Assembly (NCBI GenBank): GCA_045626925.1
Contig: JAZUQZ010000031.1
Coordinates: 11,087 to 75,086, forward strand
DNA from: Candidatus Aphodoplasma sp.
Lineage (GTDB): Bacteria; Bacillota; Clostridia; UBA1381; UMGS1253
Direction of reading: 5' to 3'
Length of the DNA: 64,000 nt
Shown: positions 53,639-63,189 of the stretch, piece after piece
How the letters are laid out: each line of letters starts with the position of its first letter
Position numbering within the stretch: the first letter of the stretch is position 1
Position numbers and translations under genes: made by a program
The notes under the pieces: model-generated
What the model saw: the letters and a program-made list of their open reading frames with translations, nothing else
The model's database searches: none
Told to the model about the DNA's origin: nothing

Positions 53639-54709
53639 TTATGCACGCACAGAACCGTCAGCAGAATCCATATCATACATATATGAAGATTTGTCGCGCA
53701 ATATGTTTATATTATCAAGTGATGCCCCTGTTCCTTTAACGACGCACGATAATGGGTCATCAGCAAGGAAGACATCGATTCCCGTCTTCTGCGCCAAAAG
53801 CTTATCAAGACCATAAATCATCGCACCACCGCCCGTAAGTATAATTCCGTTTTCAGAAATATCACCGACAAGCTCTGGCGGTGTACGCTCAAGAACCGAG
53901 TGAACAGTGTCAACAATCTGTGACGAAACCTCTTCAAGAGCTTCACGCACTTCTTCGGAAGACACAATAATGCTCTGCGGCAATCCTGTAACAAGACTGC
54001 GTCCACGGATTTCCATTGTTTTTTCTTCTTCCATAGGATATACACTGCCAATTACTTTTTTCATTTCTTCGGCGGTTCTGTCACCGATTATAGCATTGTG
54101 CTTTTTTCTTATATGTCTAATAATTGCATCGTCAAACTTGTCGCCGGCAACCTTTATAGAATTACTTACAACAATACCACCAAGAGATATTACAGCAACA
54201 TCTGTTGTACCACCGCCGATATCAACAACCATGCGTCCGCATGCACGCGCAATATCAAGCCCCGCACCAATTGCAGCCGCAATCGGCTCCTCGATAAGAA
54301 ATACCTGTCTGCCGCCTGCTTGCATCGCAGCATCGATTACTGCTCTCTCTTCAACCTCCGTTACACCACTTGGAACACAAATCATAATCCGTGGCTTGAA
54401 CAAACGGTTTTTTGTAACCTTGCGGATAAAATATTTAAGCATCATTTCGGTCGTCGAATAGTCCGAAATTACACCCTCACGCATGGGGCGTATAGCGACA
54501 ATATTGCCCGGTGTACGACCAAGCATTTTTTGCGCTTCTGCACCAACGGCATACGGTTTTCCCGTTCCTTTGTCAATAGCAACAACGGAAGGCTCGCACA
54601 AAATGATACCTTTATCTTTTACATGCACCAAAACCGATGCAGTACCAAGGTCGATACCGATGTCTTGTGACGAAGCGAACATATTTTTTATTCTTTTAAA
54701 TAGACCCAT
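53639..54709 (-). CDS. mreB: Rod-shape-determining actin homolog MreB/Mbl
   Basis: DIGIDLGTASVLV phosphate-1 motif, DIGGGTTDVAV, and full-length MreB-like translation (356 aa). Confidence 0.92.
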   Translation of the reverse strand: MGLFKRIKNMFASSQDIGIDLGTASVLVHVKDKGIILCEPSVVAIDKGTGKPYAVGAEAQKMLGRTPGNIVAIRPMREGVISDYSTTEMMLKYFIRKVTKNRLFKPRIMICVPSGVTEVEERAVIDAAMQAGGRQVFLIEEPIAAAIGAGLDIARACGRMVVDIGGGTTDVAVISLGGIVVSNSIKVAGDKFDDAIIRHIRKKHNAIIGDRTAEEMKKVIGSVYPMEEEKTMEIRGRSLVTGLPQSIIVSSEEVREALEEVSSQIVDTVHSVLERTPPELVGDISENGIILTGGGAMIYGLDKLLAQKTGIDVFLADDPLSCVVKGTGASLDNINILRDKSSYMYDMDSADGSVRA

Positions 54710-54930
54710 TTTTCAAATTAGCCCCCTTAAAGTAGGTTTTATCAAAAAAGTATTGCTCTAAAAAAGAGCATATGCCATCTTTTATTATATACTATTTATA
54801 AATTTTGTCAATAGTGTGTGATGCACGCGAGGCAAAGTTTTTATAGCTTTTTTTATATATGCTTGCATAAAGGGCTCAAATAATGTAAAATAAAGGTGCG
54901 TTATATAAGCTGTTGTAGGAGCGGATATAG

Positions 54931-55530
54931 ATGTTAAAAATAAAAGAGGCGCTCATTGTTGAGGGCAGATATGACAAAATAAAGCTTTCCTCCATTGTGG
55001 ATACGCTTATTATTACGACGGACGGATTTAGGATTTTTTCTGATAAGCAGAAGCGTGAGTTTATACGCACCATTGCACAAAAGACGGGCATTATTATTCT
55101 TACGGATTCCGATGCGGCGGGTTTTTCGATACGAAATTATATAAAGCAGGGTATTGATAAAAACGCTATCAAGCACGCGTATGTTCCGGATATATTCGGC
55201 AAAGAAAAGCGAAAATCTGCGATGTCAAAAGAGGGCAAGCTTGGTGTTGAGGGAATAGATAAAAAAATAATAATCGATGCGCTTGTTGCTGCGGGGGCAA
55301 GCATAATAGGCGAAGAAAGGGCCGCCAACATAAAAGAAAACGGTCAAAAAATTACAAAGCTTGATTTATATAATGATGGGGTTGTAGGCGGAAAGGAAAG
55401 TGCACAAAAGCGCCGCTTGTTATTAAAGCGTTTGCACTTGCCCGAGAGAATGTCCTCAAATATGCTTATAGATGCGATAAATTCTCTTATAAGTTATGAA
55501 GAATACAAAGAAGTAATAGAAAATCTTTAA
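54931..55530 (+). CDS. rnmV: Toprim-domain protein, ribonuclease M5 (RnmV)-like
   Basis: IKEALIVEGRYDKIKL ... IIILTDSDAAGFSIRNYIK matches the RNase M5 Toprim pattern (E...DxD). yabE and rnmV are neighbours in B. subtilis. Confidence 0.6.
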   Translation: MLKIKEALIVEGRYDKIKLSSIVDTLIITTDGFRIFSDKQKREFIRTIAQKTGIIILTDSDAAGFSIRNYIKQGIDKNAIKHAYVPDIFGKEKRKSAMSKEGKLGVEGIDKKIIIDALVAAGASIIGEERAANIKENGQKITKLDLYNDGVVGGKESAQKRRLLLKRLHLPERMSSNMLIDAINSLISYEEYKEVIENL

Positions 55531-55533
55531 AAA

Positions 55534-55568
55534 GTGTCGGTGCAAAGCTGCATCGGCACAATTTTTTT
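55534..55568 (+). terminator. Rho-independent terminator
   Basis: gtgtcggtgca aagc tgcatcggcac followed by T7. Confidence 0.8.
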
Positions 55569-55654
55569 GTGCTTTGTAATAAAAAGTAAAATAGCTCAAT
55601 ATAATGTAGTAACCTGTACATCTTTGAGTAAAATTATATTGAGGAGGATAATAA

Positions 55655-57133
55655 ATGACCGGAGCAGAAATTTATAAAGATATTGCCACAAGGACCGATG
55701 GCGATATTTACATTGGTGTTGTAGGACCTGTACGCACGGGAAAATCTACATTTATAAAGCGTTTTATGGACTCGCTTGTAATCCCAAATATTGATAGTGA
55801 GTACAAGGCCGCGCGTGCGCGTGACGAGCTTCCGCAAAGTGCGGCGGGACGCACAATAATGACCACCGAACCAAAATTTATTCCAAATGAGGCAGTTGAT
55901 ATCGCACTTGATGAAAATGCGCATATGAATGTGCGTATGATAGATTGTGTCGGTTACATAGTCGACTCTGCTATGGGATACATGGAGGATGGCGAGCCGC
56001 GCATGGTACAGACACCATGGTTTGAGCATCAAATCCCGTTCAATGAGGCGGCAGAGCTTGGTACAAAAAAGGTTATATGTGACCACTCTACGATAGGGCT
56101 TGTTGTTACAACAGATGGCACTATAACCGATATTGCGCGAGAGGATTATGCCGATGCAGAGATGCGCGTTATAAACGAGCTTAAAAGTATTGGAAAGCCG
56201 TTCGTTGTGCTTATAAATTCAACAAATCCAAACGGCGATGCAGCCCAAGCGCTCAAAGAGGAGCTTGGAGAAAAATATGGCGTTGCTACTATGGCAGTAA
56301 ACTGTGCCGAGCTTTCAGCAAAGGATATTCACGATATAATGGAGAGCGTCTTGTTCGAATTTCCTCTCTGTGAAATAACAATAAACACTCCGCGATGGAT
56401 TGATGGGCTTGATATGTCGCATGCGCTCAAACAAGGTGTATATGATGCGATTATTTGTGCAACCCAAAACGCGCACACAATAAAAGATGCAAAATTCGTT
56501 GCCGAGGCTCTTGGGGAATACGATTTTGTAAAATCCGCAAAGATTGATGCGGTAAATCTTGGAAACGGAAGTGTATCAATCGATTTTTATATGCCTGATG
56601 AGCTGTTTTATAATGTTTTAAGCGAGCTGTCGGGGCTCGAAATTGAGGGTGAAGAGGCGCTTATACGATTGATATGCGAGCTTTCTGAAACAAAAAAGCG
56701 CTATGACAAGATTGCATATGCATTGCACGAGGTGTCACAAAAGGGCTATGGCATAGTTTCGCCCACGATTGATGAGCTTACACTTGAGGAGCCGCAAATC
56801 GTCCGCCAGGGCAATCGCTTTGGTGTAAAATTAAAGGCTTCGGCGCCGAGCATACATATGATTCGTGCAGATATTGAAACAGAAGTTTCGCCAATTGTTG
56901 GTTCTGAAAAGCAATCAGAGGAGCTTGTGGAGTATCTTTTGGCCGAATTTGACTCCGACCCAAAGAAAATATGGGAGTCAAATATATTTGGCAAATCGCT
57001 TCACGAGCTTGTAAACGAGGGCCTTCACAACAAGCTTGTGCGCATGCCGGACGAGGCACAGTTAAAGCTTCAGGAAACACTTACAAGAATTATTAACGAA
57101 GGCTCCGGCGGGCTTATTTGTATAATACTTTAA
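55655..57133 (+). CDS. spoIVA: Stage IV sporulation protein A (spore coat morphogenetic ATPase)
   Basis: IYKDIATRTDGDIYIGVVGPVRTGKSTFIKRFMD (Walker A) and a 492-aa length identical to typical SpoIVA. C-terminus GGLICIIL. Confidence 0.95.
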   Translation: MTGAEIYKDIATRTDGDIYIGVVGPVRTGKSTFIKRFMDSLVIPNIDSEYKAARARDELPQSAAGRTIMTTEPKFIPNEAVDIALDENAHMNVRMIDCVGYIVDSAMGYMEDGEPRMVQTPWFEHQIPFNEAAELGTKKVICDHSTIGLVVTTDGTITDIAREDYADAEMRVINELKSIGKPFVVLINSTNPNGDAAQALKEELGEKYGVATMAVNCAELSAKDIHDIMESVLFEFPLCEITINTPRWIDGLDMSHALKQGVYDAIICATQNAHTIKDAKFVAEALGEYDFVKSAKIDAVNLGNGSVSIDFYMPDELFYNVLSELSGLEIEGEEALIRLICELSETKKRYDKIAYALHEVSQKGYGIVSPTIDELTLEEPQIVRQGNRFGVKLKASAPSIHMIRADIETEVSPIVGSEKQSEELVEYLLAEFDSDPKKIWESNIFGKSLHELVNEGLHNKLVRMPDEAQLKLQETLTRIINEGSGGLICIIL

Positions 57134-57142
57134 ATATAAATA

Positions 57143-57175
57143 AAAAAGCACAGAGTGTAAGGCTCTGTGCTTTAA
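57143..57175 (+). terminator. Rho-independent terminator after spoIVA
   Basis: aaagcacagag tgtaagg ctctgtgcttt. Confidence 0.8.
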
Positions 57176-57288: not shown

Positions 57289-57317
57289 TTGACAAAACTA
57301 TAAAATATTGATAGAAT
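57289..57317 (+). promoter_or_regulatory. sigma-A promoter of the polysaccharide locus
   Basis: TTGACA (57289-57294), 17 nt, TAGAAT (57312-57317). The ~90-nt leader contains the hairpin gtccat-ttttcg-atggac. Confidence 0.7.
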
Positions 57318-57410: not shown

Positions 57411-58907
57411 ATGTCTTTAAAATTAATGTACATAACAAATAATCCGCAAGTTGCACGAATTGCTGAAGAAAATGGCGTTGATAGGATATGGATTGATTTA
57501 GAGAAAAACGGAAAAGAAGAGCGACAAAAGGGGTTAAATTCCGTTAAATCAAAACACAGTCAAGAAGATATAAGCGCTATAAGAAAAGCAATTGGCAAGC
57601 GCGCTGAGCTTATGGTAAGAGTCAACCCGATTTTTGAAGGCTCAAAGGCTGAAATTGATGATGCGATATCACGAGGCGCTGACATTTTGATGCTTCCTAT
57701 GTTTAAAACCATGCAGGAAGTAAAATGCTTTATAGATTTGGTTGGCGGAAGAGCAAAGACGATGCTTTTGGTCGAAACAAAAGAGGCAGCGCAAAACATT
57801 GAGGAGATTGTAGAGATTGAGGGTATAGATGAAATACATATTGGACTTAATGATTTACACTTGTCATATGGGTTGAGCTTTATGTTTGAACTTTTGTCAA
57901 ACGGATGCGTTGAAAGACTTTGCTCGGTTATAGCAAAGGCTGGCATACCATATGGCTTTGGAGGGGTGGCACGGCTTGATAGCGGAATGATTGCCGGCAG
58001 ACAGATAATAATGGAGCACTATCGACTTGGTTCAAGCATGGCCATTTTATCGCGAAGCTTTTGCAACACAGAAGATGTTGATAATATAGACGAAATAGAG
58101 AAGATTTTTTCACAAAACATGAAGGAATTCAGGGAATATGAGTCATATTGTCAGATGGCCGAGAGTGCAGAGTTTAATAAAAACAAGAAAGAAGTTAAAA
58201 AAGGGGTTAAAAAAGTTGTGAAGGAATTGGAGCTGAAAAACAAAAAAAGTAAAAGCTTTAGATTTTATAAAGATATAATAAAAAGGACGGGAGATATTTT
58301 GTGTGCTTCTATAGCGTTTGTTGTGGCCTCCCCCATTTTACTCATTGTAGCGCTTTTAGTAAAAATTGATTCAAAGGGGCCGGCAATATTTGTCCAGGAA
58401 AGACTTACTCTAAACGGAAGAGTGTTTAAAATGTATAAGTTCAGGACAATGTGCGTAAATGCAGAGAATCAGGGGACGGGCGCATATTCTTTTGATGATG
58501 ATCCACGCATAACGCGCGTTGGTGCAATTCTTCGAAAGCTGAGTCTTGATGAATTGCCACAACTTGTGAACATTATAAAGGGCGATATGTCTTTTATAGG
58601 GCCAAGGCCTATTTTGACATATCATCCGTGCAAATATGAAGAATACACAGAAGAAGAAAAAACTGTATTTACCGTTCGTCCGGGCATCACAGGTTGGGCA
58701 CAGGTTAATGGTAGAAACAATGTAGATTGGATACAGCGTTTTGAGCTTAATAAATGGTATGTAAAAAATGTTTCTCTTCTGCTTGATATAAAAATTGTGT
58801 TTATGACAATTTTTCAAGTTTTTTCAACAAAGGAGACTGTCATACAAGAAAAAACAGCAGAAAATTTTGCACAAAGAATACAAAAAGAGAATGCAGAGGT
58901 TAAATAA
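57411..58907 (+). CDS. Fusion protein: N-terminal HpcH/HpaI aldolase / citrate-lyase-beta-like TIM-barrel domain + C-terminal monotopic phosphoglycosyl transferase (bacterial sugar transferase, PglC/WbaP-C type)
   Basis: Residues ~290-498 read [42 protein letters not shown] ... [37 protein letters not shown]. Residues 1-~250 ([41 protein letters not shown]) look like the HpcH/HpaI fold. That N-terminal call is by eye only. Confidence 0.7.
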
Positions 58908-59827
58908 TGGCTAAAAGCAAAGCGAACATCTTATTAACAGGTGCATTTAACTATAGTGAAAAACAAATCAAGGCTATTTCGGAATTGGGATTTGAAACGA
59001 CTTTTCTGCAAAATGAAAAAGATGAAATAACAGATTATGAAAAGTTTAACGCTGTTATAGCTAACGGATTGTTTTTGCACCATGATATTTCGGAATTTAA
59101 AAACTTAAAATACATACAGCTCACAAGCGCAGGGTTTGACAGAGTTGCAATGGATTATATTAAAAAAAATGATATTATAATACATAATGCACGGGGAGTT
59201 TATAGTATACCTATGGCCGAGCATGCGGTTTTGAAAATATTGGAGCTTTATAAAAAAAGCTGGACTTTTTATACAAATCAACAAAAAGGCGAATGGTACA
59301 AGCAACGCGACATATTGGAGCTATATGGCAAAACCGTTGCGATTTTTGGGTGTGGAAGCGTAGGGCTTGAAATTGCAAAAAGGCTTAAGGCTTTTGGTAC
59401 ACATATCATAGGCGTAGATATTTTAAAAAGCGACAGCGACTATATCGAAGAATATGCCGACATTTCGCAAATTTATGATATTTTACCGAAAGCGGATATT
59501 GTAATATTAACGCTTCCGCTAAATGATGAAACAAGAGGTTTGTTTGATAAAACAAGCTTTGGTTGTATGAAGGAAAGTGCAATATTTATAAATATTGCTA
59601 GAGGACAAATAGTGTGTGAAAACGATTTGATTGATGCGCTGAAAGAGCAAAAAATCATGGGTGCAGCACTGGATGTTTTTGAACAAGAACCGCTCGACAA
59701 AGAAAGTGAGCTGTGGGAGTTGGAAAATGTAATAATTACTCCGCACAATTCTTTTGTGGGCGAGGGCAATAATAAAAGAATGTTTGAAGTAATATATAAA
59801 AATTTAGGGGTATTTATAAATGGCTGA
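58907..59827 (+). CDS. D-isomer-specific 2-hydroxyacid dehydrogenase family protein (NAD-binding)
   Basis: GCGSVGLEIAKRL Rossmann motif, ARG..V and ITPH catalytic-region motifs. Its start overlaps the upstream stop (TAATG). Confidence 0.8.
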   Translation: MAKSKANILLTGAFNYSEKQIKAISELGFETTFLQNEKDEITDYEKFNAVIANGLFLHHDISEFKNLKYIQLTSAGFDRVAMDYIKKNDIIIHNARGVYSIPMAEHAVLKILELYKKSWTFYTNQQKGEWYKQRDILELYGKTVAIFGCGSVGLEIAKRLKAFGTHIIGVDILKSDSDYIEEYADISQIYDILPKADIVILTLPLNDETRGLFDKTSFGCMKESAIFINIARGQIVCENDLIDALKEQKIMGAALDVFEQEPLDKESELWELENVIITPHNSFVGEGNNKRMFEVIYKNLGVFING

Positions 59828-60929
59828 AAAAATAATGGTAATTTCGCCCAAAAACAAAACTGTTTTTAATTTTCGCGGCGATTTGATAAAAGAATTTATA
59901 AACAAAGGTTATGAGGTAGTCGTAACAGGGCCGAACGACGATTTTGTTGATGACATCAAAGCACTTGGGGCTGAGTTTGTGAAGGTGCCGTGCGTTAAAG
60001 ATAATACGAGTATCCTAAACGATTTATCATATTGTAAAAATCTTTACAAGGTTATAAGAAAATATAAACCGAACAAGATTTTTTCGTACACAATAAAGCC
60101 TGTTATATATGGTTCAATTGCCGGCGGCCTTGCCGGAGTGAAAGAAATATATCCTATGATGACAGGGCTTGGAAGAGTGTATGGAATAGACAGCTTAAAG
60201 ACCAGGATAATAAGACTTATTACCGGCATACTATACAAAATCGGTTTTGCTTTTTGCAAAAAAGTTATTTTTCAAAACTGGGATGACTTAGAGCTTTTTG
60301 TAAAGTCGAGGTATCTTCCGAGGACGAAGTGTGAAAAAATAGATGGTTCCGGCGTTAATATGAATCGCTTTGAGTTTTGTGAGCTTCCTGATAAACCTGT
60401 ATTTCTTATGATTTCAAGGATTATAAAAGAAAAGGGTGTGTTTGAGTTTTGTGAGGCGGCAAAAACAGTCAAAGAAAAATACCCCGAAGCAGAGTTTGTG
60501 CTCTTGGGTGGATATGATGAGTCATTTGGTGCGATAAAGCCTGAGCAGATGGAGACTTATACAACTGCGGGCATAGTAAAAATACCCGGGGAGGTAAAAG
60601 ATGTATCCCCTGTATTAAAAGATGCATTCTGCTTTGTGCTTCCTACATATTACAGAGAAGGAATTCCAAGAACTATCCTTGAGGCAATGGCTACAGGAAA
60701 GCCCATTCTTACTACGGATTGGGTTGGTACAAGGGAAGCTGTTGAAGATGGAGAAAATGGCTTCTTAGTTCCCATAAAGGATAGCAAGGCTCTTGGCGAA
60801 AAGATGATATATATGATTGAAAATAAAGAGCAGACAAAACTTATGGGCAAAGCAAGTTATAAAATATGTCAAGAAAAATTTGATGTAAATATTATAAACG
60901 AAAAGATGCTCGAATTTATGGAAATATAA
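59820..60929 (+). CDS. Glycosyltransferase, GT4 (GT-B) family
   Basis: The C-terminal EX7E region reads EGIPRTILEAMATGKPILTTDWVGTREAVEDGENGFLV. 8-nt overlap with the upstream gene. Confidence 0.85.
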   Translation: MAEKIMVISPKNKTVFNFRGDLIKEFINKGYEVVVTGPNDDFVDDIKALGAEFVKVPCVKDNTSILNDLSYCKNLYKVIRKYKPNKIFSYTIKPVIYGSIAGGLAGVKEIYPMMTGLGRVYGIDSLKTRIIRLITGILYKIGFAFCKKVIFQNWDDLELFVKSRYLPRTKCEKIDGSGVNMNRFEFCELPDKPVFLMISRIIKEKGVFEFCEAAKTVKEKYPEAEFVLLGGYDESFGAIKPEQMETYTTAGIVKIPGEVKDVSPVLKDAFCFVLPTYYREGIPRTILEAMATGKPILTTDWVGTREAVEDGENGFLVPIKDSKALGEKMIYMIENKEQTKLMGKASYKICQEKFDVNIINEKMLEFMEI

Positions 60930-60943
60930 AAGAGGGTTATGCA

Positions 60944-61129
60944 ATGAATTTTTATAAAAAAATAATTAGCAGCAAAAAACTGCGATTCAAGATTTTGTCC
61001 TTCTTAAGTATTATTCCGGATAAGCAAATGTTACAGCTACAATATTTCATTAAGCACGGAAGAATATTAAACCTTAGTAATCCCAAAAGGTATACCGAAA
61101 AAATACGAACACGAATGTATATGCATTGA
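60944..61129 (+). pseudogene. Truncated remnant of a TupA-like ATP-grasp (amidoligase) gene
   Basis: The 61-aa ORF keeps only the family's N-terminal region (KKLRFKILSFLSIIPDKQMLQLQYFIKHGRILNLSNPKRYTEKI). It then diverges and stops, and the next gene starts 15 nt later. Confidence 0.55.
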
Positions 61130-61143
61130 AAAGAGGAATTAAG

Positions 61144-62097
61144 ATGGAGAATAAAAACCCAAAAGTATCTATTGTAATACCTGTATATAATGGCTCGGAT
61201 TATCTGGGCGAAGCTATAGATGGGGCGCTTGCACAAACCTATAAAAATTTAGAGGTTATAGTTGTAAATGACGGCTCGACGGATGATGGTGCAACGGAGC
61301 AAGTTGCACTATCATATGGTGACAAAATACGCTACTATTCAAAACCGAATGGCGGTGTTTCGTCTGCGCTAAATTTTGGAATTAAAAAAATGACGGGCGA
61401 GTATTTTTCGTGGCTATCGCATGACGATAACTATGCCCCGAGCAAGATTTTCGATGCTGTTTGTCTGATAAACAAGTACGGAAATGACAAAAAGATTATA
61501 GCTTGTACAGGCGGAATGTACATAGATGATAAATCGCTCCCCGTTAAAGCGTTTACGAAGCGGTTTGAAGATGACCATCTATATGAAGGCATCGAAGTGC
61601 TTATGAATATATTAAAAAGAACATTGAATATGTGCTGTTTGCTTATTCCACGCGAGGTGTTTGATGAATGTGGAATATTTGATGAAAGATTGCGATATTC
61701 TCAAGATGCCCTGATTTGTTATAAAATCTTTTGCAATGGGTATAAGCTTGTTTCAGACAACAAACCAAATGTGATGTACAGACGACACAGGGCGCAAGCG
61801 TCAAATACAAGGAAGGATCTATTTTATCATGACATATCTTTAATATGCAAAGAAATTGCTCCGGCATTTGCAAGCGTTTCAACACAGGAGTGCAATGTTT
61901 TATTAAAACATTCTATTAAAATTGCAAAATTTAGATGTGTTGATGCTATAAAAGAAAATATAAGGATAGGAAAAGAAACAAAAATATTATCCAAAATGGA
62001 CATCTTAAAAATAAAAGCAGTTTTAGAGTATGGGAAAATAAGAGAAGTTCTTAAACATATATATTGCAGGTATGTCTTGCGTATAAAAATAAAATGA
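61144..62097 (+). CDS. Glycosyltransferase family 2
   Basis: Start at 61144 (MENKNPKVSIVIPVYNGSDYLGEAIDGALAQTY). DDG and HDD (DXD-type) motifs. Confidence 0.88.
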   Translation: MENKNPKVSIVIPVYNGSDYLGEAIDGALAQTYKNLEVIVVNDGSTDDGATEQVALSYGDKIRYYSKPNGGVSSALNFGIKKMTGEYFSWLSHDDNYAPSKIFDAVCLINKYGNDKKIIACTGGMYIDDKSLPVKAFTKRFEDDHLYEGIEVLMNILKRTLNMCCLLIPREVFDECGIFDERLRYSQDALICYKIFCNGYKLVSDNKPNVMYRRHRAQASNTRKDLFYHDISLICKEIAPAFASVSTQECNVLLKHSIKIAKFRCVDAIKENIRIGKETKILSKMDILKIKAVLEYGKIREVLKHIYCRYVLRIKIK

Positions 62098-62121: not shown

Positions 62122-63189
62122 ATGGTTATCTATGTAACAAATATTATATTGATGTTGTTTTGGCATGAGGTGCTTAATGTGCAGCGCTCAATGATTGGAG
62201 TGAAAAATCCGAAGAAAACATTTTGTGTCATTGCAGCACTTCAATGGATATTGATTTCGGGCTTAAGAGGCTTGTCCGTAGGCGCGGACACAATAAGTTA
62301 TAAAGACGACTTTGATATGGTTAGTGGCAGGACATGGAGCTCGCTTATAAAGTCGTTTAATGCTATTGTTTTTGAGGGTGCTCAAGGTAAGGACCCGGGA
62401 TATAAACTGCTTGAAAAAGCGTTTCAGATTTTTTCTGATAATTACCAAATGTGGCTTATATTTATAGCTGTTATTTTTATGGTGCCTATGGCAATTTGGA
62501 TATACAAACGCTCAGAGGATGCTCTTATGAGCTTTTTGATATATTCGTGCTTATTTGCATCGTTTTTTTCGATAACCGGGCACAGACAAACGGTTGCGAC
62601 AGCATTTGTTGTTTTTGTAGGAGATTTTCTTATAAAAAAGAGAAAATTTGTTCCGTTTTTATTGATTGTGCTTGTGATGAGTACGATTCATAAATCATGT
62701 TTGGTTTTTCTGCCATTCTATTTTTTGTACAATAAAAAAATAACGACACCATATATTATATTTGTTATTATAGCGGCGGTGTTGACCTTTATATTCCAAG
62801 ATTCGTTTATGGAGTTTTTGGCGGAATCATCAGGCTATGAGGATTATTCAAGAATGGAAGGAGCTGGTGCATACACCTTCTCAATTATGATTTTGCTTAT
62901 TATGATTGCGGCGCTTTGGCGCATGAGAATTATATTAGAAGAACATCCCGAAGCCAGTGCCTCATATAATGCTTTGATGCTTGCACTGGTATTTCTTCCG
63001 CTTACATTTGTTAACACAAATATGATGCGAGTTGTACAGTATTTTTCGATATATCTGATGATTGTGGTTCCTTATATATTACATTCGTTTAAGGGTAGAC
63101 AAAGGGCGTATATCACACTTGCTGTTATAGCTATATTGTTGTTTTTACATTTTAAAACACCAAGATATTATGAGTTCTTTTGGCAATAA
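62122..63189 (+). CDS. EpsG-family polytopic membrane protein (putative polysaccharide polymerase, Wzy-like)
   Basis: About 10 TM helices and a conserved periplasmic-loop region (GLSVGADTISYKDDF) typical of EpsG family. Confidence 0.75.
   Translation: MVIYVTNIILMLFWHEVLNVQRSMIGVKNPKKTFCVIAALQWILISGLRGLSVGADTISYKDDFDMVSGRTWSSLIKSFNAIVFEGAQGKDPGYKLLEKAFQIFSDNYQMWLIFIAVIFMVPMAIWIYKRSEDALMSFLIYSCLFASFFSITGHRQTVATAFVVFVGDFLIKKRKFVPFLLIVLVMSTIHKSCLVFLPFYFLYNKKITTPYIIFVIIAAVLTFIFQDSFMEFLAESSGYEDYSRMEGAGAYTFSIMILLIMIAALWRMRIILEEHPEASASYNALMLALVFLPLTFVNTNMMRVVQYFSIYLMIVVPYILHSFKGRQRAYITLAVIAILLFLHFKTPRYYEFFWQ

Follow-up and report, generated by a model that had tools for sequence, protein, structure and literature searches.

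Here, we provide evidence that the first gene of a polysaccharide locus in Candidatus Aphodoplasma sp. joins a divergent aldolase-like barrel to an enzyme that primes glycan synthesis, in a contig stretch of 64 kb (64,000 nucleotides, hereafter the window). The fusion gene (57411-58907, + strand) is an uninterrupted open reading frame (ORF) of 498 amino acids without any in-frame stop. Its N-terminal module, which together with its family we label Hpl, precedes a small monotopic phosphoglycosyl transferase (PGT), and the next ORF (58907-59827, + strand, 306 amino acids) was identified by Pfam as a D-2-hydroxyacid dehydrogenase (HADH) gene. We propose, with a probability of roughly 0.4, that Hpl adds a pyruvate-derived unit to the nucleotide-activated first sugar of the repeat, that HADH reduces the resulting side chain, and that the PGT domain then loads the product onto undecaprenyl phosphate. 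The weaker claim, that Hpl catalyzes the formation of a 2-oxo acid and is coupled in function to both the PGT and the HADH, is in our judgment probable.

Architecture of the fusion protein and its dehydrogenase partner

Pfam recognized both halves of the 498-amino-acid protein, with HpcH_HpaI (PF03328) at amino acids 9-155 (48 bits against a cut-off of 25, E 1.2e-12) and Bac_transf (PF02397) at amino acids 291-471 (222 bits, E 4.6e-66), both E-values being far outside chance. The Hpl domain (amino acids 1-270; 57411-58220, + strand) matched model positions 8-160 of 221 only, and AlphaFold2 (AF2) modeled it as a (beta/alpha)8 barrel with a helical hairpin (amino acids 226-274) at the C-terminal end, with a predicted local distance difference test score (pLDDT) of 93.4 and a predicted template modeling score (pTM) of 0.91. 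Its top Foldseek matches in the PDB were YfaU, HpaI and HpcH (E 6e-11 to 1e-9, template modeling score [TM] 0.58-0.67, 15-20% identity), and these class II pyruvate aldolases were followed by pyruvate kinases, SbnG and CitE/CLYBL. A preliminary description of this locus had read the N terminus as an HpcH/HpaI-type TIM barrel, and profile, model and structural matches all agree with that assignment.

The class II pyruvate aldolases HpaI/HpcH, YfaU (RhmA) and GarL share the (beta/alpha)8 fold with Hpl, and the counterparts of their Arg70, Glu149 and Asp175 are kept as R70, E122 and D148: alignments equate E122 and D148 with the metal ligands of YfaU/HpaI and, at lower confidence, R70 with the pyruvate-binding arginine (HpaI R70). 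All three are among the 19 positions that are at least 97% invariant across 121 diverse representatives of the family (D29, E31, G34, K35, R38, Q39, R70, M94-L95-P96, E122, G145, N147, D148, G182, G184, G185, L213, and F217), and the 2-oxo-acid/Mg2+ site thus appears intact. Hpl departs from the known aldolases in its 15-20% identity and TM of about 0.6, in an extra C-terminal helical hairpin, and in an 18-residue insertion after strand 2 with an invariant GK..RQ (G34, K35, R38, Q39) and H49; the GK..RQ loop may form an anion-binding site. Close relatives all keep H49, which is part of an inserted loop that is modeled at low confidence and that HMMER aligns to the EH of AbHpaI. The position of the catalytic His45 of HpaI, which follows D29-L-E31, is occupied by Lys in the window's Hpl and by Thr in the family consensus, and Hpl genes reside in glycan loci whereas those of the class II pyruvate aldolases reside in catabolic operons. 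Against the NCBIfam equivalogs HpaI, RhmA and GarL, Hpl scored 16-27 bits where the cut-offs are 369-441, and is thus not a member; a stand-alone homologue had zero NCBIfam matches. Hpl thus belongs to the HpcH/HpaI superfamily but to no characterized aldolase family. Four relatives (P0142, P0144, P0154, and P0237) show weak matches to DUF7916 (PF25509) and PEP_mutase (PF13714) around strands 3-5.

The fold also bears on a phosphonate route, in which Hpl as a phosphoenolpyruvate (PEP) mutase would make phosphonopyruvate and HADH would pull the reaction toward phosphonolactate, while in other loci an aminotransferase and a decarboxylase would yield 2-aminoethylphosphonate. Trapping of phosphonopyruvate by a 2-HADH-type reductase, as in the valinophos pathway, or by transamination offers a precedent, and both the weak PF13714 matches in P0142 (E 9e-4) and P0154 and the LicD genes in loci L094 and L095 point the same way. 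We nevertheless regard this route as highly unlikely, given that the top 50 Foldseek matches of Hpl hold no PEP mutase or isocitrate lyase structure, that the window protein has no PF13714 match at E <= 0.01, and that the region of E122 reads ETKEAAQN, an HpcH-type motif, in place of the PEP mutase signature EDKxxxxxNS, which is absent. The route would also leave the link to the PGT unexplained, and no nucleotidyltransferase is conserved in the gene cassettes described below.

The C-terminal half is an intact PglC-like small monotopic PGT (amino acids 291-498; 58281-58904, + strand), as the preliminary description had it. The Bac_transf match spans model positions 1-178 of 179 and with them the whole catalytic core, the best solved relative is the PglC structure 8g1n (E 1e-48), and both the D380-E381 dyad (in LDELPQL) and the PRP motif (P398-R-P400) are present. 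A hydrophobic stretch at amino acids 296-318, with S307-P308, is predicted to be helical and probably has the re-entrant topology of these enzymes. The nearest relatives of this domain are stand-alone PGTs of about 214 amino acids from Firmicutes and Bacteroidales (70-78% identity). PGTs specific for UDP-N,N'-diacetylbacillosamine (UDP-diNAcBac) are marked by a GLLLP loop and an aromatic box (PMC10186338). Since the loop of the window's PGT is not GLLLP, its donor sugar is not obviously diNAcBac; the aromatic-box Tyr, Tyr, Trp, and Phe seem to be kept in the alignment with PglC. Another fusion protein, P0226 (563 amino acids), joins Acyl_transf_3 to a PGT half that is 74% identical to the window's PGT domain; Acyl_transf_3 is a customary neighbor of the reductases in cassettes B and C (see below), but is not found in the window's locus.

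Stop and start codons of the fusion and HADH genes overlap in TAATG with one shared nucleotide (the junction reads ...GTTAAATAATGGCT), an arrangement that couples the two genes translationally. The HADH ORF matched 2-Hacid_dh_C (PF02826, 188 bits) and 2-Hacid_dh (PF00389, 43.5 bits), and both GCGSVG at 148-153 (NAD site) and an Arg-Glu-His triad (R232, E261, and H280) are present. It is thus predicted to be an NAD-type, D-isomer-specific 2-hydroxyacid dehydrogenase with intact catalytic residues, in keeping with its earlier identification. Compared to the substrate-defined equivalogs LdhD, GhrA/B, SerA, PdxB, and VanH, it reached at best 192 bits against a cut-off of 400 and fell below the other cut-offs as well. 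Its full-length identity to the HADHs of all nine other HADH-type Hpl cassettes is 49-57%, and that to the HADH half of P0262, an Hpl-HADH fusion, is 42%, which argues for an orthologous, dedicated partner of Hpl.

The two halves of the fusion protein are connected by a Lys-rich, helical linker (amino acids 271-290; 58221-58280, + strand) encoded by an A-rich stretch. Within the A-/Lys-rich junction (58190-58260), an in-frame GTG (58219) follows AAAAGGGG and a TTG lies shortly downstream, and a separate PGT is possibly translated from an internal start here. The A-richness of the junction, these in-frame codons and the occurrence of separate genes in most relatives could suggest that a sequencing or assembly error joined two genes, a reading that is in practice refuted. 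The kind of check that the preliminary description had sought from resequencing is provided by P0121, a protein of 498 amino acids from independent Logan assemblies that is 99.6% identical to the window protein in each half. In addition to the lack of an in-frame stop, three other clusters besides the window type have the complete Hpl-PGT order (P0157 among them), and many more have the reverse order: in a whole-protein search, 106 of the best 120 matches contained both domains, and domain-wise BLAST of these 106 clusters found the order PGT-Hpl in 101 and Hpl-PGT in 5. The two orders imply independent fusions, and as P0157 moreover belongs to a cassette type other than the window's, PGT and Hpl were joined at least three separate times. 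Triple fusions in the order PGT-GT4-Hpl, with a family 4 glycosyltransferase (GT4), are known as well (P0223, P0225, and P0269).

Both termini of a monotopic PGT are cytoplasmic, as in the PglC structure, so that the partner stays in the cytoplasm in either order. In the AF2 model the final helix of Hpl continues unbroken into the membrane helix of the PGT (amino acids 252-321), and the fusion probably holds a soluble aldolase-like enzyme at the membrane beside the PGT active site; the full-length model has a pTM of 0.62, at which the inter-domain geometry is unreliable and supports no statement on channeling. With a catalytic-type domain added to the small PGT core (one ORF, two Pfam domains), the protein is a bifunctional monotopic PGT as this class has been defined (PMC10186338), with a partner that we did not find described. 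It shares with other members of the class, such as the acetyltransferase-PGT PglB of Neisseria, the PglC-like core, predicted re-entrant helix, Asp-Glu dyad, and PRP motif, as well as an extra catalytic domain of the same pathway at a cytoplasmic terminus, but differs in that the partner is an HpcH/HpaI-like TIM barrel that occurs at either terminus. No description of such a PGT partner was found in the literature searched; the PGT-fusion catalogue of O'Toole et al. 2021 (PNAS) lay outside that search, and may hold an earlier listing.

Spread of the Hpl family and its conserved cassettes

Searching 1.84 billion representative proteins with Hpl returned 1509 clusters at E <= 1e-3, of which 454 reached E <= 1e-30, and a scan of one genome per species found at least 538 carrier species. 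Carriers include Christensenellales, Lachnospiraceae, Oscillospirales, Selenomonadales, Erysipelotrichia, Fibrobacter, Bacteroidota and Spirochaetia, with Blautia schinkii DSM 10518, Selenomonas caprae, Anaerovibrio lipolyticus LB2005, one Paenibacillus and one Bacillus cereus (AFS016912) among the cultured ones. The usual form is a stand-alone protein of about 276 amino acids with 56-63% full-length identity to the window domain. To the preliminary description the fusion partner was unfamiliar; this holds insofar as the family is uncharacterized, and full-text literature searches (PGT fusions, polysaccharide, aldolase clusters, shewanellose, B. cereus eps) returned nothing on it, but the partner is no one-off, as it represents a large family that is mostly encoded by a stand-alone gene next to a PGT.

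A locus census (ORF calling and BLAST over 74 genome loci, +-10 kb) recovered a PGT in 57 loci, mostly adjacent to Hpl. Decarboxylase genes occurred in 44 of the loci and class IV aminotransferase genes in 42, with HADH present in 9 and Ldh_2 in 7. Three cassettes recur: (A) Hpl, decarboxylase, PGT, aminotransferase, and a TuaG-like family 2 glycosyltransferase (GT2); (B) the window's type, with PGT/Hpl, Acyl_transf_3, HADH, and GT4; and (C) Hpl, PGT, Ldh_2, and Acyl_transf_3. The aminotransferase of cassette A scores above the NCBIfam cut-off for IlvE (292.5 versus 279), the decarboxylase is LysA-like, and Ldh_2 is nearest to sulfolactate dehydrogenase. Hpl is also fused to an ornithine/diaminopimelate-type pyridoxal phosphate (PLP) decarboxylase (P0228, P0237), to Ldh_2 (P0233), to 2-Hacid_dh (P0262, P0290), to GT4 (P0253), and to the N-terminal CoA_binding_3 region of PglF-like proteins (P0230, P0232); GT4 genes adjoin or are fused to Hpl in several cases (P0253, P0269, L081, L031, and L055). 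Hpl is thus a conserved partner of small PGTs, accompanied by alternative enzymes that process 2-oxo acids. Every one of these alternative partners converts a 2-oxo acid, which is the pattern expected if Hpl makes one. The preliminary description had placed 2-oxo- or 2-hydroxy-acid chemistry in physical coupling to the initiation of the repeat unit. The recurrent fusions in both orders, the fusions to HADH, Ldh_2, PLP decarboxylase, and GT4, and the conserved cassettes uphold this core idea, though its details need correcting, as set out below.

PGTs are known control points, and a regulator acting on a PGT has been described (PMC12802240). It is therefore conceivable that the barrel is a regulatory domain that binds pyruvate, PEP or another 2-oxo acid without turnover and gates the PGT by carbon status, and the conserved ligand-binding triad of Hpl would serve such a role too. 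We consider this very unlikely for a family that is mostly stand-alone, is fused to four different soluble enzymes and travels with enzymes that convert 2-oxo acids, and whose 19 nearly invariant positions include all of the catalytic-type residues.

Several loci depart from the common cassettes. The PGT-Hpl fusion P0166 (L008 8001-9455; L009 1772-3226) is flanked only by metA (HTS) and an authentic cysK, no glycan genes lying nearer than 8 kb, and in L002 and L003 an HTS gene lies immediately 5' of a stand-alone Hpl cassette; this setting could be an insertion hotspot or a link to sulfur/homoserine metabolism. The PALP enzyme beside the fusion gene in L008 was considered as a fourth tailoring partner, but was rejected because its score of 364 bits, above the cut-off of 351, marks it as a true CysK. 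An aminotransferase, Hpl, and decarboxylase trio lacking a PGT is found in L004-L006 (12455-16837), L035, L043, and L044, beside CTP_transf_3, a 523-amino-acid HMGL-like protein and a KdsC-like phosphatase, and looks like a separate, unusual activation pathway of the ulosonic-acid type. In the Bacteroidales loci L094 and L095 (3475-13751), Hpl, PGT, and Ldh_2 form part of a capsular polysaccharide locus that also holds a NusG/UpxY-like regulator, DegT, an FGE-sulfatase-like protein and two LicD phosphotransferases; this cassette has clearly crossed phylum boundaries.

Proposed acceptor sugar, order of steps and alternative routes

The comparative evidence on the acceptor comes from the genes that accompany Hpl. 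A full-length PglF/CapD/EpsC-like UDP-GlcNAc 4,6-dehydratase occurs in 22 of the 74 loci, mostly directly 5' of Hpl, and 14 of these 22 have neither a DegT aminotransferase nor a stand-alone short-chain dehydrogenase/reductase within +-10 kb that could use the 4-keto product. The complete capsule locus L048 (Wzz, kinase, phosphatase, PglF-like, Hpl-decarboxylase, PGT, aminotransferase, glycosyltransferases, Wzy) has only the Hpl-decarboxylase and the aminotransferase for the steps between PglF and PGT, and nothing else to process a keto sugar. ORFs of about 597-607 amino acids were observed at about 9026-10837 in L020, L054, L071, L073, and L087, and likewise in P0230 and P0232; in these roughly 600-amino-acid proteins a PglF-like N-terminal membrane and CoA_binding_3 part is followed by Hpl, which replaces the dehydratase domain.

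The first-sugar identity is a main determinant of PGT specificity. We compared the divergence of PGT and Hpl over the same 49 loci, grouped into amine-type and reductase-type cassettes. PGT identity was 69.4% within the amine type and 60.7% within the reductase type, but only 45.1% (standard deviation 3.5) between types, whereas Hpl identity was 61.4% and 58.0% within types and 58.4% between them, and Hpl sequences cluster only loosely by cassette type. As the PGT splits by cassette type and Hpl does not, Hpl appears to see one substrate everywhere and the PGT the tailored product, as expected for tailoring on the nucleotide sugar ahead of priming. The preliminary description had instead suggested an attached lactate- or glycerate-type substituent; a modified first nucleotide sugar fits better, both with the PglF-like genes upstream in 22 loci and with PGT clades that track the tailoring enzyme. 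Its suggestion of an acidic decoration applies to the window's variant only, as in most relatives the tailoring enzymes (IlvE-like aminotransferase and LysA-like decarboxylase) lead to an amine.

We therefore propose the following route, in which the fusion protein would initiate a Wzx/Wzy-type polysaccharide pathway. Hpl would form a Mg2+-stabilized pyruvate enolate and, in an aldol reaction, create a C-C bond between it and a carbonyl on the nucleotide-activated first sugar, most likely the C4 keto group of a UDP-4-keto-6-deoxy-N-acetylhexosamine (UDP-4-keto-6-deoxy-HexNAc) from a PglF-like dehydratase, yielding a sugar with a 2-oxo-acid side chain. HADH would then reduce the 2-oxo group to a D-2-hydroxy acid, a step that in other loci would be taken by Ldh_2 as the reductase or by the IlvE-like aminotransferase and LysA-like decarboxylase, giving an amine. 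The PGT domain would finally move the finished sugar-1-phosphate onto undecaprenyl phosphate, after which GT4 would add the second sugar and GT4, GT2, and EpsG would build and polymerize the repeat.

The order of these steps could be reversed, such that the PGT would load the keto sugar onto undecaprenyl phosphate first, and Hpl and HADH would modify the lipid-linked monosaccharide before GT4 acts. The fusions of Hpl to PGT and to GT4, the PGT-GT4-Hpl triples, and the continuous predicted helix that puts Hpl at the membrane surface would suit such an order. We judge it distinctly improbable, given that co-variation of the PGT sequence with tailoring type is expected only if tailoring comes before the PGT, that most Hpl proteins are soluble and stand-alone, and that soluble IlvE-like and LysA-like enzymes are unlikely to act on a polyprenyl substrate.

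Alternatively, Hpl might as an ordinary pyruvate aldolase condense pyruvate with a small aldehyde to a free 4-hydroxy-2-oxo acid, which HADH would reduce to a 2,4-dihydroxy acid or, elsewhere, the aminotransferase and decarboxylase would convert to a gamma-hydroxy amine, before a further enzyme links this product to the glycan as a substituent. Aldolases of the HpcH family, YfaU for instance, do make gamma-hydroxy amino acids in vitro together with branched-chain aminotransferases, and the cassette-A aminotransferase lies above the IlvE equivalog cut-off. The trios without a neighboring PGT in L004-type loci and the ATP-grasp or AsnB-like genes in some loci (L048, L010) likewise favor a free metabolite. 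However, a free acid would need an activating or ligating enzyme, and none is conserved across the annotated cassettes. This route would also leave unexplained why Hpl is fused to the PGT in either order, to GT4, and to the N-terminal domain of PglF, and why PGT clades track the tailoring enzyme. We thus consider a free-metabolite route unlikely.

Tailoring of the nucleotide sugar is nonetheless our tentative choice, and several observations weigh against it. The acceptor substrate is purely conjectural. A full PglF-like gene occurs in no more than 22 of the 74 loci, the 64-kb window lacks genes for a PglF-like protein, DegT, PglD, Acyl_transf_3, an aminotransferase, or a decarboxylase, and L031, the locus with the layout nearest to the window's, is also without a dehydratase within 10 kb. 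The window's host would have to supply the keto sugar from another part of its genome, or else use a different acceptor. The IlvE-grade aminotransferase of cassette A suits small free 2-oxo acids better than UDP-linked ones, and the aminotransferase, Hpl, and decarboxylase trio occurs without an adjacent PGT in L004, L035, L043, L044, and L068. B. cereus and Paenibacillus loci pair Hpl with a full PglF/DegT/PglD set and have no 2-oxo-acid enzyme. Finally, the equivalent of HpaI His45 is Lys or Thr in Hpl, and a TM of about 0.6 at only 15-20% identity leaves room for another reaction on the same scaffold.

The proposed route resembles known systems in parts. The PglF-PglE-PglD-PglC pathway to undecaprenyl-diphosphate-linked diNAcBac (also B. 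subtilis EpsC/N/M/L) combines a membrane-anchored 4,6-dehydratase, modification of the 4-keto group, a small PGT and GT4, as proposed here, and the B. cereus locus L081 has the full PglF/E/D/C-type set plus Hpl. It differs from the 14 of 22 PglF-containing Hpl loci, in which the DegT aminotransferase and acetyltransferase are missing and their place is taken by Hpl and 2-oxo-acid enzymes. In the biosynthesis of C-branched sugars, a carbon nucleophile likewise attacks the 4-keto group of a 6-deoxy sugar in its nucleotide-activated form, with the thiamine diphosphate (ThDP)-dependent YerE as the catalyst in the case of yersiniose. Hpl is of another enzyme family and cofactor type, a metal-enolate aldolase in place of ThDP, and no Hpl member is linked to a known branched sugar; shewanellose is a 4-C-branched 6-deoxy-HexNAc, and we know of no described route to it. 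The nonulosonic-acid synthases NeuB, PseI, and LegI follow a similar idea in that they join a pyruvate-type unit of three carbons to a sugar that the same dehydratase pathway supplies, but they use PEP and a free, hydrolyzed sugar, are members of the NeuB family and require CMP activation, none of which is seen in the window's system. By analogy, the system would work like a cross of the PglF-E-D-C pathway and 4-keto-sugar C-branching on a class II aldolase scaffold. Hpl may then be, as a more speculative proposal than the route itself, the founding member of a family of pyruvate aldolases that branch or extend the carbon chain of a sugar nucleotide by adding pyruvate to the keto group of UDP-4-keto-6-deoxy-HexNAc, with the new arm subsequently modified by exchangeable reductase or aminotransferase/decarboxylase modules to a hydroxy-acid or aminoethyl group.

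At the PGT step the cell commits itself to one particular surface glycan. In no fewer than 538 species, many of them abundant gut commensals, a conserved, uncharacterized and putatively C-C-bond-forming enzyme lies beside or inside a PGT, under gene labels that read merely 'aldolase/citrate lyase family protein' or 'sugar transferase'. This implies a set of priming sugars missed by present glycan chemistry and genome annotation. If our proposal is true, hundreds of gut Clostridia, Negativicutes, Bacteroidales, and Fibrobacter, and some Bacillus/Paenibacillus, would have in their capsules and cell-wall glycans charged, C-branched priming sugars of a class not recognized before. Interchangeable tailoring would yield acidic or cationic side arms, of relevance to zwitterionic, immunomodulatory polysaccharides, and the modules would supply new biocatalysts for branched or extended sugars.

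Of the stand-alone PGTs sampled from Firmicutes and Bacteroidales, the three nearest to the window's (75-77% identity) all adjoin Ldh_2 and two of the three adjoin Hpl, in keeping with a PGT that sees the tailored product. Loci L091 and L092 (7001-9724) have the order PGT, Ldh_2, Acyl_transf_3 with a PGT 77% identical to the window's and no Hpl gene within 7 kb; here, either Hpl lies elsewhere in the genome or the reductase is able to work without it.

Setting of the operon in the window

The fusion gene appears to head its own transcription unit. A promoter-like site (TTGACA-17 nt-TAGAAT with a TG extension; 57289-57317, + strand), a consensus match only, agreeing at 11 of 12 positions, lies about 94 nt 5' of the start codon, and an AAGGGG ribosome-binding site precedes the ATG. 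Further upstream, a terminator-like hairpin with an 11-bp stem and a T-rich run (57145-57173) was called by the scan on the - strand; its palindrome, read on the + strand, sits just past the spoIVA stop (57133). We assign it provisionally to spoIVA, where it would mark the upstream limit of the polysaccharide operon. A search for a riboswitch or leader 5' of the fusion gene returned as its best candidate a sub-threshold trpB-motif (22 bits against 59), which was rejected.

Downstream, on the + strand, follow a GT4 gene (59820-60929; Pfam Glyco_trans_4_2 and Glycos_transf_1), likely the second-sugar transferase, a GT2 gene (61126-62097; PF00535, 94.8 bits), and a gene for an EpsG-family membrane protein (62122-63189; PF14897, 159 bits) that is a candidate Wzy-type polymerase. 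With spoIVA, the hairpin and the promoter-like site upstream and GT4, GT2, and EpsG downstream, the fusion gene stands first in a Wzy-type polysaccharide operon of a spore-forming Firmicute, the position that the preliminary description had given it. Locus L031 has the same gene order, and is the most similar layout. The region 5' of the operon (53639-57133) holds sporulation and housekeeping genes, including a Toprim/DUF4093 protein and SpoIVA, as well as a - strand ORF of 356 amino acids that by eye looks MreB/Mbl-like. G+C content falls from about 0.42-0.44 in this upstream flank to about 0.35-0.36 over the polysaccharide genes, and a lowered G+C content is common for horizontally exchanged glycan loci.

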